Origin: a virus
Taxonomy: Duplodnaviria; Heunggongvirae; Uroviricota; Caudoviricetes
Virus record (IMG/VR): IMGVR_UViG_2724679236_000015
DNA length: 9,876 nucleotides
Direction: 5' to 3' (one strand)
Shown here piece after piece: positions 3,672 to 8,455 of this stretch. A model generated the notes under the pieces. The model made no database searches. It was not told the origin of the DNA and saw only the letters and a list, made by a program, of their open reading frames with translations. The position numbers and the translations under genes were made by a program. How positions within the stretch are numbered: the stretch's first letter is position 1; each line of letters begins with the position of its first letter.

Positions 3672-3685
3672 TTAAAGCACCTTAA

Positions 3686-3752
3686 TTGTTAGTCATAACT
3701 AACAAAATAAATGTTAACAAAAACATAGTCAATAAGATTTAGCATTAGCTAA
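3686..3752. promoter_or_regulatory. Divergent dicC/dicA control region with operator palindromes
   Basis: Perfect 8-bp-arm palindrome TTGTTAGT-cata-ACTAACAA at 3686-3705, and TTAGC-atta-GCTAA at 3739-3752 ending 2 nt before the dicA ATG. AT-rich 83-bp intergenic region between divergent genes. Confidence 0.5.
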
Positions 3753-3754
3753 CT

Positions 3755-4162
3755 ATGGATACAAAAAATTTAACCATTGGCGAACGCATTAGATATCGCC
3801 GAAAAAACCTCAAATACACCCAAAGGTCTCTTGCTAAAGCCCTGAAAATTTCTCATGTATCGGTTTCACAATGGGAACGGGATGATAGCGAACCTACAGG
3901 AAAGAATCTTTTTGCCCTCAGCAAAGTACTGCAGTGCTCGCCAACATGGATTCTATTTGGCGATGAAGACAAGCAGCCATCACCACCTATTGAGGAGCCA
4001 GTTGCTCTATCCCCCAAAGAACATGAGCTCCTTGAGCTTTTTAATGCATTGCCTGAATCAGAACAGGATGCTCAGCTCACCGAGATGCGCGCCCGAGTAA
4101 AAAATTTCAACAAACTCTTTGAAGAGTTATTAAAAGCCCGTCAACGAACAAACAAAAGATAA
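3755..4162 (+). CDS. dicA: XRE-family HTH repressor DicA (CI-like immunity repressor)
   Basis: 135-aa protein MDTKNLTIGERIRYRRKNLKYTQRSLAKALKISHVSVSQWERDDSEPTGKNLFALSKVL... closely matches my recollection of E. coli DicA (same length, classic HTH). Confidence 0.85.
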   Translation: MDTKNLTIGERIRYRRKNLKYTQRSLAKALKISHVSVSQWERDDSEPTGKNLFALSKVLQCSPTWILFGDEDKQPSPPIEEPVALSPKEHELLELFNALPESEQDAQLTEMRARVKNFNKLFEELLKARQRTNKR

Positions 4163-4186
4163 CGCAATCAATGCGTTATCTTTTTG
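4155..4186 (+). terminator. Rho-independent terminator downstream of dicA
   Basis: AGATAACGCA-atcaa-TGCGTTATCT: a perfect 10-bp stem (4157-4166 / 4172-4181) followed by a T-run (4181-4185), overlapping the dicA stop codon. Confidence 0.6.
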
Positions 4187-4197
4187 GTCGCCCAAAA

Positions 4198-4251
4198 TGT
4201 TAGTCATGGCAAACAAAAACACTTGACCAAATTGTTAGCTATGGCTAATCT
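4198..4251 (+). promoter_or_regulatory. Putative dicB-operon promoter overlapped by DicA-type operators
   Basis: TTGACC (4223-4228), 17-bp spacer, TAATCT (4246-4251). The palindrome TTAGC-tatg-GCTAA (4235-4248) overlaps the spacer and -10. An imperfect related site lies at 4200-4213. Confidence 0.45.
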
Positions 4252-4328: not shown

Positions 4329-4481
4329 ATGGATACTATCAATCTTGGCAACAACGAATCTCTGGTGTGCGGCGTGTTCCCAAACCAAGACGGTACGTTC
4401 ACCGCAATGACGTATACCAAAAGCAAAACGCTTAAAACCGAATCTGGCGCGCGTCGCTGGTTAGCCAGAAACACTGACTGA
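4329..4481 (+). CDS. ydfA: YdfA-like small protein (DUF1391-type, 50 aa)
   Basis: MDTINLGNNESLVCGVFPNQDGTFTAMTYTKSKTLKTESGARRWLARNTD; AAGG Shine-Dalgarno 5 nt upstream of the ATG at 4329. The ORF-track start at 4251 lacks an RBS. Resembles my recollection of Qin YdfA. Confidence 0.6.
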   Translation: MDTINLGNNESLVCGVFPNQDGTFTAMTYTKSKTLKTESGARRWLARNTD

Positions 4482-4492
4482 TGAGGCTGACG

Positions 4493-4858
4493 ATGGAATT
4501 TAAAGATTTACCGTCTGATGTACAGAAAACAGCAGCTCATACATTGCATTCTGTGCTGCGAGAAATCGGGAAAGATATTGCAAGCGAGCCAGCAAAAGAT
4601 CTGGCCCGGAAAATCAAGACCGCTTTCGTTGAGCTTTATAATGTTGGCACTGACTCTGAAACTGTCGAGACCAAGACCGTAAGTTCACCAATATTCTCAC
4701 TTGAGCCAGGCGTATTATCAGGTGAAATATGCACCGAGATTTCCAGCGAACTGCTTCCGGTAATACGAGAAGCAATTTGCCGTCGCGGTTTGGATGGAAG
4801 TTACGATCATGACGTCCTGCAAGTTCTCAGGACAATGGTGACTTCACTGGGGATTTGA
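4493..4858 (+). CDS. Hypothetical acidic 121-aa protein of the dicB operon
   Basis: GAGG Shine-Dalgarno (4483-4486) 6 nt upstream of the ATG at 4493. An alternative ATG at 4481 overlaps the ydfA stop (TGATG). No family recognised. Confidence 0.55.
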   Translation: MEFKDLPSDVQKTAAHTLHSVLREIGKDIASEPAKDLARKIKTAFVELYNVGTDSETVETKTVSSPIFSLEPGVLSGEICTEISSELLPVIREAICRRGLDGSYDHDVLQVLRTMVTSLGI

Positions 4859-5027
4859 TCCCTGCGTCCTCTAACCTTTTGATATAGCGGTCCTCCAAGA
4901 AGCGGTAAATTTTGTCGAAATCATCTTTCCCCTCTGGTTTATTCAGAGGATTACAGGACCCGTAAGTAACGGCATACATTTCAACCGTTTTATCAAAAAT
5001 ATAAGAGACAAATTCTTCTTTAGTCAT
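4827..5027 (-). CDS. Hypothetical 66-aa protein encoded antisense to the dicB operon
   Basis: Minus-strand ATG at 5027 preceded by AAGGAAA with 7-nt spacing. It is the only open frame across about 170 bp where the plus strand has none. Translation: MTKEEFVSYIFDKTVEMYAVTYGSCNPLNKPEGKDDFDKIYRFLEDRYIKRLEDAGIKSPVKSPLS. Its 3' end overlaps the 121-aa ORF convergently. Confidence 0.45.
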   Translation of the reverse strand: MTKEEFVSYIFDKTVEMYAVTYGSCNPLNKPEGKDDFDKIYRFLEDRYIKRLEDAGIKSPVKSPLS

Positions 5028-5302
5028 ATAGATTTCCTTCTTGGTTATTCGGGATAAGAAGGATACCACCTCGCCTGACGTGGTTAAAAGCAGGCACACA
5101 ACACGAAAGCGCACGGCGAAGTTCGTCTCACTGTACGGTGTCGTTAAATTTAATTCGACCGTGCGCTTCCGGTTGTGGCAACCCGCGAAATGGCGCGGCG
5201 GTAAGTATGGCGGGGTTATTCCTTCCCCGTTGAGGACACCGGGTTGTCAGGTTGACCATACGCTTAAGTGACAACCCCGCTGCAACGCCCTCTGTTATCA
5301 AT

Positions 5303-5358
5303 TTTCTGGTGACGTTTGGCGGCATCTGTTTGCCCATGAACTGATGTCCGCCCTTTTT
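5303..5358 (+). ncRNA. dicF: DicF-like small RNA (cell-division inhibitor sRNA of the dicB operon)
   Basis: TTTCTGGTGACGTTTGGCGG matches the DicF 5' region as I recall it, followed by a GGCGGCATC...GATGtCCGCC hairpin and T5 (5354-5358). Located upstream of dicB as in Qin. Confidence 0.7.
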
Positions 5359-5527
5359 AAAGTGAATTTTGTGATGCGGTGAATGCGGCTAAGCGCACGC
5401 GGAACAGTTAAAGCTAAAAACAGTGTTATGGGTGGATTCTCTGTATCCGGCGTTAATTGTTAACTGGTTAACGTCACCTGGAGGCACCAGGCACCGCATC
5501 ACAAAATTCATTGTTGAGGACGCGATA

Positions 5528-5995: not shown

Positions 5996-8455
5996 ATGAG
6001 TAAAGTCTTTATTTGCGCCGCCATTCCGGACGAACAGGCAACAGCAGAAGGCGCTAAACCTGTGGCCACTGCCATTGAAGCAGGCGACGAACGCCGGGCA
6101 AGAGCCAAATTTAGCTGGTTATTTCTGGAACAATACCCGGAAGCTCAGGACTGTGCTTATAAATTTCTTGTCTGCGAGGATAAACCCGGCATGGCCCGCC
6201 CTGCTCTCGATTCCTGGGATTCCGAATATATGCAGGAAAACCGCTGGAATGAGGAGTCGGCTTCCTTTGTTCCGGTCGACCCTGAACCGGACGCAGAAAT
6301 TGTTAACTTTAATCAGTTATCTGACGACAAGCGGGCTGCTGTCCTTGTCAGGTTCGGTACACATGAAAACATCACCGTGGATATGGTCATCAATGCAAGC
6401 GGGCTTCTCGGCGATGACGAGATGACGACTTTTGATGGACACCTCGCTGAAGCAATTATCCGGACCAGAGAAATTAACGCCATGTATCCAGAGCGTCAGA
6501 TTGAGTACATCAACGATGCCAGACGTGATTTAAAACCAACAGCCAAATGGCCCGACGTTCAGGCGTATTTTCTCGAACGTAAAAAACGCATGGAAAAGGA
6601 GCGCAAAGAAGGTGGCGCATATAATTCCGTCGTCGATCTTGCCCGCGCCAGAGTCAACCGGCAAGGCACTGAAAACTCTGCAGGAAAAACTGGCTCCGTA
6701 ACTGCTGTCATTCGTCGCGAATACAGGCAGACATGGAAAACACTGGATGACGAACTGGCCTACGCTCTCTGGCCTGGTGATGTGGATGCCGGAAACATTG
6801 ACGGCAGCATCCATCGCTGGGCAAAAAATGAAGTTATCGACAACGACCGCGAAGACTGGAAGCGTATCTCGGCATCAATGCGCAAACAGCCTGATGCCCT
6901 TCGCTACGACCGCCAGACTATTTTTGGCCTTGTCCGTGAACGTCCGATCGACATTCACAAAGACCCTGTGGCACTGAACAAATACATTACTGAATACCTG
7001 ACGACAAAAGGCGTGTTTGAAGATGAAGAAACGGATCAGAGTCCTGCTGATGTTCTCCGGTCGTCAGCAACACAAACTGATGCAGTGGAAACAGAAGTAT
7101 CTGGCACCCAAAAAAATGAAAGCGCACTGGAAGCTGAACCATCTGTAGAGCGTGAAGGACCGTTCTACTTCCTCTTTACCGATAAGGACGGCGAAAAATA
7201 CGGTCGCGCAAACAAACTGTCTGGTCTGAATAAGGCGCTGGCTGCCGGGGCTACTGAAATCACCAAAGAAGAATACGTCGCCCGAAAAAATGGCACATAC
7301 ACAGGCTTACCGCAAAATACCAATGCCGCACAAAACTCTGAACAACCAGAGCCGGTAAAAGTTAACACGGTCGAAACAAATAAAAAAATGGAGACAGAAA
7401 ATCTGCCTGATGCCGACAAAGTGCTTACTGCATCACGTGGTGAATTTGTTGAAGGAATTAGCGACCCGAATGATCCGAAGTGGGTTGAGGGGATCCAGAC
7501 TCGCGATTCTGTGTACCAGAATCAGCAAGAAATGGAACAGAACGACCAGAAAGCGGAACAAAACAGCCCGGATGCGCAACAAAACGGGCCAGAAGTGCAA
7601 CAGTCAGAGCCAACAGCACAACAGGAGACTGAAAAAAGCTGCAATACTTGCGGCCGGACTGGCGGTGGAAAATGTCCGGACTGCGGGCCTGTTATGGGTA
7701 ACACAACATATCAGGAAACATTCGATGAAGAAAATCTGGCTGAAAAAGATTCGGAGAAAATGGAAAGCACTGCGCATTCTCGTAAGGAGAGCGCTGGTGA
7801 CGCTCAGCATGGCAATAGCAGTGATGAAACTGGCGAGACGGCAAATCCCCTAATTCCGGTGAACAGTCATCATAAATACATATCCACCAGCAACAGAATG
7901 TGGACTCATATGATGATCGACCTGGAAACCATGGGAAAAAATCCTGATGCTGCAGTTATCTCAATAGGTGCAATATTTTTCGATCCGCAAACCGGAGATA
8001 TTGGGCCAGAATTCAGTAAGACCATCGATCTGGATACTGCTGGCGGTGTCATTGACAGGGACACCATTAAGTGGTGGCTGAAGCAATCGCGCGAAGCGCA
8101 GTCTGCCATTCTGGCTGATGAAATCCCGTTAGATGATGCACTGTTGCAATTACGGGAATTTATCGACGAAAACTCTGGTGAGTTTTTTGTTCAGGTCTGG
8201 GGCAACGGAACCAGTTTCGACAACGTAATTTTACGCCGTTCATACGAACGACAGGGAATCCCCTGCCCGTGGCACTACTGCAATGATCGCGATGTTCGCA
8301 CGATCGTTGAACTGGGAGGAGCCATGGACTTCGATGCCAGAACGGCTATTCCATTCGAAGGCGAGCGCCACAATGCACTTGATGACGCCCGTTACCAGGC
8401 AAAATACGTTTCAGCTATCTGGCAAAAACTGCTCCCAAGTCAGGCTGATTTTTAA
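5996..8455 (+). CDS. Prophage exonuclease: RecE-N-terminal/YdfE-like region fused to a C-terminal DEDDh (DnaQ-like) 3'-5' exonuclease domain
   Basis: 819-aa ORF with GAGG Shine-Dalgarno 10 nt upstream. The C-terminal roughly 190 aa carry DEDDh motifs: IDLETMG (Exo I), VWGNGTSFDNVIL (Exo II), HNALDDARY (Exo III). The segment ASRGEFVEGISDPNDPKWVEGIQTRDSVYQNQ resembles the RecE N-terminal region as I recall it. A C-x2-C-x9-C-x2-C motif (CNTCGRTGGGKCPDC) sits in an acidic, Q-rich linker. Confidence 0.85.
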   Translation: MSKVFICAAIPDEQATAEGAKPVATAIEAGDERRARAKFSWLFLEQYPEAQDCAYKFLVCEDKPGMARPALDSWDSEYMQENRWNEESASFVPVDPEPDAEIVNFNQLSDDKRAAVLVRFGTHENITVDMVINASGLLGDDEMTTFDGHLAEAIIRTREINAMYPERQIEYINDARRDLKPTAKWPDVQAYFLERKKRMEKERKEGGAYNSVVDLARARVNRQGTENSAGKTGSVTAVIRREYRQTWKTLDDELAYALWPGDVDAGNIDGSIHRWAKNEVIDNDREDWKRISASMRKQPDALRYDRQTIFGLVRERPIDIHKDPVALNKYITEYLTTKGVFEDEETDQSPADVLRSSATQTDAVETEVSGTQKNESALEAEPSVEREGPFYFLFTDKDGEKYGRANKLSGLNKALAAGATEITKEEYVARKNGTYTGLPQNTNAAQNSEQPEPVKVNTVETNKKMETENLPDADKVLTASRGEFVEGISDPNDPKWVEGIQTRDSVYQNQQEMEQNDQKAEQNSPDAQQNGPEVQQSEPTAQQETEKSCNTCGRTGGGKCPDCGPVMGNTTYQETFDEENLAEKDSEKMESTAHSRKESAGDAQHGNSSDETGETANPLIPVNSHHKYISTSNRMWTHMMIDLETMGKNPDAAVISIGAIFFDPQTGDIGPEFSKTIDLDTAGGVIDRDTIKWWLKQSREAQSAILADEIPLDDALLQLREFIDENSGEFFVQVWGNGTSFDNVILRRSYERQGIPCPWHYCNDRDVRTIVELGGAMDFDARTAIPFEGERHNALDDARYQAKYVSAIWQKLLPSQADF

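Follow-up and report, generated by a model that had tools for sequence, protein, structure and literature searches.

A conserved small gene facing the dicB early-left operon of a Qin-like prophage: coding evidence, a convergent cassette and a candidate promoter

In the stretch of viral DNA analysed here (9,876 nucleotides of IMG/VR record IMGVR_UViG_2724679236_000015, hereafter the window), dicA, ydfA and a gene for a 121-aa protein follow one another, and an ORF of 66 aa then converges on them from the opposite strand, running against the dicB early-left operon. The locus raises the questions of whether this ORF is a gene, how it came to lie in the operon, and what a protein encoded against the direction of early transcription might do. 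A sequence-only reading of the window had described the ORF as fitting either an inserted moron or an antisense-acting regulatory or toxin–antitoxin-like element. The features considered below are collected in Table 1.

Table 1. Coordinates of the 66-aa gene, its partner and surrounding features in the window
Feature	Position	Strand	Remarks
sok antitoxin RNA	24–191	minus	Rfam RF01794, 107 bits; hok/sok locus, hokD region of Qin
Perfect 13-bp inverted repeat, AAAAGATAACGCA / TGCGTTATCTTTT	4154–4184		Spans the end of dicA
Two operator-like repeats	4195–4218, 4230–4248 (4195–4248)	plus	Match the dicC–dicA intergenic sequence 3684–3707
Partner gene, 121 aa ("Ybl81", PHROG 33007)	4493–4858	plus	PGAP start 4493; WP_001320327.1 in BL21(DE3)
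Partner C-terminal domain	4697–4858	plus	Part always accompanying the 66-aa gene
Mobile cassette	4493 to about 5110 (~0.6 kb)	both genes	Replaces ydfB–ydfC of K-12 Qin
66-aa gene	4827–5027, including stop	minus	ATG 5027–5025; ORF and translation; PGAP call
Tail-to-tail overlap of the 66-aa and 121-aa genes	4827–4858		32 nt; partner ends at 4858
Shine–Dalgarno sequence AAGGA	5039–5035	minus	Exactly 7 nt (AATCTAT) to the ATG of the 66-aa gene
Predicted extended −10, TGGTATCCT	5068–5060	minus	Upstream of the 66-aa gene
Long imperfect hairpin	5094–5178	both	Exactly at the cassette boundary; also in L004, 3670–3760
DicF	5304–5353		43.5 bits; Rfam gathering score 48
819-aa protein	5996–8455		At the site of the ydfE remnant in K-12 and of a truncated "exonuclease VIII" in BL21

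Coding evidence for the 66-aa ORF

The translation of the minus-strand ORF is MTKEEFVSYIFDKTVEMYAVTYGSCNPLNKPEGKDDFDKIYRFLEDRYIKRLEDAGIKSPVKSPLS. Its coordinates and translation confirmed the local layout described in the sequence-only reading, namely an ORF with AAGGA at the claimed distance before its ATG, a gap in the plus-strand ORFs between the 121-aa gene and DicF (none of at least 30 aa was found at 4859–5040), and a 3′ overlap with the 121-aa gene of close to the 30 nt proposed. The reading had also seen no room for a terminator; a consensus scan gave no terminator-like site 3′ of the ORF on the minus strand, the sole such site on that strand between 4200 and 5800 being a weak one at 4405–4390. 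Rfam identified no RNA family within 4827–5100. In most of the homologues examined the Shine–Dalgarno sequence is AAGGA, GGAGG or GAGGA, and the coding tails of the two convergent genes overlap by 32–56 nt in every locus with a called partner ORF. The overlap itself is nearly invariant, with at most one change per sequence pair.

The same CDS is called by PGAP in BL21(DE3) as WP_000159335.1, a "hypothetical protein" that is 98.5% identical to the protein of the window and differs from it solely by A20V; the region as a whole shares 99.6% identity with the Qin-like prophage found in strains of E. coli B and C. A profile search matched PHROG 34441, a cluster of unassigned function, over residues 1–66 of 66 (E = 9.8e-50), and the homologue from Morganella matched the same PHROG (E = 5.7e-14). 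The gene had thus already been annotated in RefSeq and clustered in PHROG, with neither its cassette, its promoter nor its slot noted; its validation as a gene, the cassette, the candidate promoter, the slot and the polymorphism are reported here.

Full-length homologues were found in Cedecea (71% identity), in the metagenomic prophages L005 and L006 (54–57%), and in Morganella and Providencia (42–49%), and the reading frame is intact out to these distant members. For codons 1–55, which lie outside the overlap, all informative pairs gave a dN/dS of 0.06–0.29 (Nei–Gojobori), and the frame is still open in pairs whose synonymous sites are saturated. Residues 1–16 are invariant or nearly so among the homologues, even where their codons differ synonymously. 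On these comparisons the 66-aa ORF is almost certainly a real protein-coding gene, and the claim that a genuine gene runs against the dicB early-left operon is supported. Since selection acts on the protein sequence, a role solely as antisense RNA is unlikely.

Searches of 5.8 and 1.8 billion proteins confined the family to prophages of Enterobacterales, with close members in E. coli, E. albertii, E. ruysiae and Shigella. The scan of 1.8 billion proteins added one genuine distant homologue (P0024); its remaining matches, to eukaryotic WD40/repeat proteins, were judged spurious. Among complete E. coli genomes the gene is carried by 398 of 5426 (~7%), at ≥95% identity in all and ≥99% in all but one; no genome matched at 100%, each being at least one base off, which gives A20V. 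The carriers include BL21(DE3), other E. coli B derivatives and E. coli C, and the gene is also carried by mEp460_ev081, a functional temperate phage (PMC10448788). The exact protein variant of the window has been recorded mainly from Escherichia albertii, which may therefore be the species from which the window derives.

The gene has also been disrupted or lost on occasion. At the IMG/VR loci with the partner domain it is intact in 56 of 62, cut by an IS1-like sequence in four and deleted in two. The cutting sequence reads as the end of IS1, from its likeness to the IS1 terminal repeat. The interruption lies near codon 12 in L142, L143, L146 and L147 (about 2795–2845), and the shortened homologues of Shigella sonnei may be related to it. 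In L117 and L122 the partner is kept and the 66-aa gene lost, indicating that the gene is not indispensable in the repressed prophage. Three further loci (L067, L068 and L069) keep the candidate promoter and the first 15–16 codons, and their homology ends at window position 4981/4982; from this shared break it seems that deletion or recombination has recurred at one point within the gene.

The 66-aa protein is predicted to be acidic and soluble and to form a helical hairpin. It has a pI of 5.3, a GRAVY of −0.65 and a maximum 19-residue hydropathy of 0.43, no transmembrane segment was predicted, and the AF2 model is a helical hairpin with a mean pLDDT of 80. Catalytic features are absent. Pfam and NCBIfam gave nothing informative for this protein or its partner, PADLOC-DB gave no family for either at E values up to 1, and for the 66-aa protein fold matches and a profile search of PDB sequences yielded nothing useful; nor did it show similarity to known exclusion or defence proteins in the databases searched. 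Literature searches under the accession, the UniRef identifier, "ybl81" or the PHROG number returned nothing on these genes. The earlier remark that the protein belongs to no recognisable family therefore holds for families of known function, PHROG 34441 being unannotated.

The convergent cassette and the slot it occupies

The gene that faces the 66-aa gene is itself annotated as encoding a "hypothetical protein" in BL21(DE3), and its PHROG has no assigned function; an alternative upstream ATG at 4481 would lengthen its product to 125 aa. The helical-hairpin domain at the N-terminus of the protein (residues 1 to ~53) is common to many early-left genes; a disordered linker joins it to a C-terminal domain of ~50 aa. 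Its AF2 model is weak (pLDDT 58) and was unfit as a search query. The dN/dS of the C-terminal domain (0.28–1.04) is weakly below 1 and is based on few changes. Like the 66-aa protein, the partner is hydrophilic and not enzyme-like. Homology between the two proteins was considered and rejected on direct comparison.

Comparison with other prophages delimits the segment that has been exchanged. Homology to K-12 Qin runs through ydfA, breaks at 4472/4473 and resumes at 5085/5086; the intervening 613 bp differ, and K-12 has ydfB–ydfC there instead. Three unrelated lambdoid backbones (L007, L011/L062 and L066) resemble the window at the nucleotide level only over 4493 to 5102–5114, a span made up of the 121-aa gene, the 66-aa gene and ~80 nt upstream of the latter. 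Two Enterobacter prophages with a common backbone differ from the end of the partner N-terminal domain to the foot of the long hairpin: L071 has the C-terminal domain and the 66-aa gene, whereas E. kobei L072 has another C-terminus and lacks the 66-aa gene. In Cedecea only window positions 4736–5049 are kept, comprising the 66-aa gene and the C-terminal ~50 residues of the partner, and the C-terminal domain is there a separate ORF with its own Shine–Dalgarno sequence and ATG, located after cro in the rightward early operon. In L005/L006 another N-terminus precedes this C-terminal domain (36% identity over 39 aa, E = 5e-7). The 66-aa homologue of Morganella and Providencia converges on a small early-left gene with a 35-nt overlap; an unbiased profile comparison of these partners with the E. 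coli C-terminal domain was not significant (hhalign E = 0.038, probability 1.4%).

These comparisons show that two convergent genes were exchanged together, namely the 66-aa gene and the 121-aa gene, or at least the C-terminal domain of the latter. Co-inheritance of this domain with the 66-aa gene could partly reflect their physical overlap. The idea of an inserted moron is thus borne out in one respect, because some Qin-like prophages carry the segment and others, such as that of K-12, do not, and the Enterobacter prophages L071 and L072 differ in it as well, but the unit is the two-gene convergent cassette and not the 66-aa gene alone. The lambdoid morons bor, lom and rexAB resemble it in being present or absent between related prophages, in lying in the immunity or early region and, if the candidate promoter described below is genuine, in having a promoter of their own. 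They differ in that the 66-aa gene has no terminator of its own, the G+C content of the cassette is the same as that of its flanks, and the cassette is a convergent pair, one member of which forms part of an early gene.

The Cedecea ORF for the C-terminal domain (L002, 3568–3897, minus strand) has lost the usual stop after ..SLG and reads 56 codons further, antisense through the whole small gene, to give a product of 109 aa in total.

The sequence-only reading had treated the arrangement as embedded in the dicB operon, and it proved not to be peculiar to that operon. In lambda, sieB (34482–35036, plus) abuts the end of N (35037–35438, minus), and in Rac, where the order is racR–ydaG–ydaF–[sieB]–kilS–kilR, sieB (plus) overlaps the end of ydaF, a DUF1391 homologue of ydfA, by 4 nt and is transcribed against these early-left genes. 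The 66-aa gene holds the position and orientation that sieB holds in lambda and Rac. The likeness to SieB extends to the slot, the orientation and the convergent placement directly downstream of a repressor-controlled early-left gene. SieB is a much larger, membrane-associated protein of roughly 160–190 aa that is expressed from the prophage, whereas the protein described here has 66 aa and is predicted to be soluble, shows no connection with SieB in Pfam, NCBIfam or PHROG, and co-travels with a domain of the early gene that it faces.

Other small genes occupy the same slot. Relatives of the partner N-terminal domain (PHROGs 9419, 1363 and 2151) bear various C-termini and are followed by convergent small genes of PHROGs 28250, 21180, 17494 and 4274 or by two unclassified ORFs; of six such alternative ORFs put to the test, four belong to recurrent PHROG families. 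The slot is thus a hot spot for small accessory genes facing the early operon. Counting an 81-aa Serratia protein, at least five other families occupy it, at loci L219, L156, L154/L155, L222/L223/L229, L225/L235/L236 and L072; all of these families are without assigned function. The antisense ORF of L072 (76 aa) had no PHROG and no relative in IMG/VR.

Regulation and a model for the 66-aa protein

In all cases examined, the 66-aa gene is oriented against the early operon. In the window, operator-like repeats that match the dicC–dicA intergenic sequence are found ahead of ydfA, the gene immediately before the partner; in L071, L007 and L073, repeats resembling those of the repressor–cro intergenic region recur just ahead of the partner itself. 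The corresponding promoter of K-12, dicBp, is likewise situated upstream of ydfA, and DicA represses it (PMC10448788). The repeats of the window mark the repressor-controlled early-left promoter facing the 66-aa gene, and together with the position of K-12 dicBp they place the partner in the repressor-controlled early operon in all cases examined.

Upstream of the 66-aa gene, the predicted extended −10 is preceded by a 16-nt spacer and a −35-like TTAACC at 5087–5082, the −35 region being poor; transcription would start near 5053 and give a leader of ~26 nt. The motif TGnTAnnnT is present 31–38 nt before the ATG in all nine loci compared, including Morganella L073, and also in Providencia L239, with a consensus of TGnTAYYCT. 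There is no other upstream similarity in L073, and we estimate the chance of finding the motif there at ~0.008, for an 8-nt position window and that locus alone. A strict consensus promoter scan did not list this extended −10. The motif is part of a block, GCCTG..CCACNTCAGGC..GTGGTATYCT, that is likewise found in front of two small genes of other families in the slot, those of L219 and L156. Inspection by eye found no LexA box or prophage operator at the candidate promoter, and no operator-like repeat was found near the block. Taken together, these features point to a constitutive sigma-70 extended −10 promoter for the 66-aa gene, although the inverted repeats within the block mean that it may also bind a protein or act as an RNA element. 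The block is located at 5060–5100 (minus) in the window, ~3135–3200 in L156, ~2605–2665 in L219 and 3420–3500 in L239; it is kept from E. coli to Providencia and contains two overlapping inverted repeats, GCCTG/CAGGC and CCAC/GTGG.

We therefore propose, with a probability of about one half, that the 66-aa gene supplies an accessory protein as long as the prophage is repressed, and that early transcription from the opposite direction silences it. Transcription of the gene would begin at a sigma-70 extended −10 promoter of its own, free of prophage operators, so that the protein would be made while the prophage is repressed. Once the early promoter fires, polymerases travelling head-on would cross the small gene and its promoter, and this head-on transcription, together with mRNAs complementary at their 3′ ends, would shut the small gene off as the partner protein appears. 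Because the 66-aa protein is without catalytic features, binding to another protein is its most likely mode of action, and the best candidate for a target would be the co-inherited C-terminal domain of the partner; a specific pairing of the two is nevertheless a tentative proposal that we consider rather doubtful. The pair might then consist of an accessory or exclusion factor of the prophage state and an early cognate that neutralises it, or the reverse.

The exclusion factor of P22 (sieB/esc) and BstA (BstA/aba) are prophage-expressed and are matched by an escape determinant of the same phage; the likeness to the present locus lies in the proposed logic only, and there is no homology. More broadly, and more speculatively still, the sieB slot of DicA/CI-type lambdoid prophages might be polymorphic, each version of it coding for a cognate pair of proteins. 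In the lysogen, a small soluble protein made from a portable extended −10 promoter would exclude or modulate an incoming or the resident phage, the variable C-terminal domain of the early protein would neutralise exactly that small protein, and convergent transcription would flip the balance at induction. The 66-aa protein and its C-terminal domain would then be one of at least five unrelated alleles (PHROGs 34441, 28250, 21180, 17494 and 4274).

The strongest rival to an accessory protein of the prophage state is a toxin–antidote arrangement in which the C-terminal domain of the partner harms the host and the 66-aa protein, constitutively present in the lysogen, neutralises partner protein that leaks from the operon. 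Co-inheritance of the domain and the small gene in several architectures would fit such an arrangement, as would the placement of the partner in a repressor-controlled operon and of the small gene behind a separate candidate promoter, and the locus lies among the toxic Qin genes dicB, dicF and ydfD (PMC10448788). We nevertheless regard it as unlikely, given that Pfam, NCBIfam and PADLOC show no homology to toxin or antitoxin families, that the genes are convergent and do not form an operon, that neither protein is hydrophobic or enzyme-like, and that the natural variants L117 and L122 keep the partner without the small gene. The same evidence bears on the toxin–antitoxin-like element of the sequence-only reading. 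A convergent 3′ overlap is a feature of type I systems, and to that extent the suggestion stands; against it, type II genes are co-directional, both products here are hydrophilic, and purifying selection marks the antisense unit as a protein gene.

Prophage units that overlap at their 3′ ends are known from lambda (OOP RNA and cII mRNA) and from the Bacillus type I loci txpA/ratA and bsrG/SR4. They share with the present locus the convergent 3′ overlap inside a prophage and the possibility of duplex formation and interference, but both partners here are hydrophilic proteins under selection, with no hydrophobic toxin or non-coding antisense RNA.

A second rival makes the peptide secondary and the minus-strand transcription itself the active agent, which by interference or antisense RNA would further silence dicF and dicB in cis. 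The candidate promoter does point head-on into the early operon, with no terminator and with overlapping 3′ ends, and the promoter block is the more constant element, preceding unrelated small ORFs in the slot. Such a device is improbable when set beside the dN/dS of the 66-aa gene, the near-invariance of its residues 1–16 despite synonymous differences, the conserved strong Shine–Dalgarno sequence and the recurrence of most of the alternative small ORFs as PHROG families. Finally, a chance ORF or over-annotation, in which conserved non-coding sequence happens to be open on the minus strand, would suit the short length, the missing functional annotation and the lack of a literature match, but is ruled out for practical purposes by purifying selection and by frames intact at synonymous saturation, with a conserved start and Shine–Dalgarno sequence, in several genera.

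Presence of the gene in BL21(DE3), in ~7% of complete E. coli genomes and in a culturable phage makes an accessory role of the 66-aa protein readily testable. If it is an exclusion or regulatory factor of the prophage state, it would represent a new small-protein family at the classical sieB position and would point to unstudied, promoter-sharing small genes in the slot; if the pairing is real, the locus would be a compact case in which a factor and its cognate neutraliser are tied to opposite sides of the lysis–lysogeny switch. The cassette may also alter how tightly the toxic dicF–dicB genes are silenced in carrier strains as compared with K-12.

Neighbouring elements in the window

The long imperfect hairpin at the cassette boundary shows compensatory changes in 7 of 20 pairs across six loci, and is also found in backbones without detectable DicF (L007, L011 and L066). 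It is homologous to the K-12 hairpin region at which RNase III makes the 190-nt DicF precursor (PMC10448788), and belongs to the setting of the 66-aa gene, not to the gene itself. Early-left operons of this kind may be processed generally at the hairpin, or it may mark a boundary of recombination in them. DicF itself scored below the Rfam gathering score because of changes in its terminator stem-loop, and a default Rfam scan consequently misses it. A partial match to STnc100 (34 bits, below threshold) was seen at 5355–5500.

No Pfam match was obtained for the first ~630 residues of the 819-aa protein; its C-terminus is an Rv2179c-like 3′–5′ exoribonuclease domain (E = 7e-66). The perfect inverted repeat that spans the end of dicA is likely the dicA terminator, located just before the early-left operator-like repeats.
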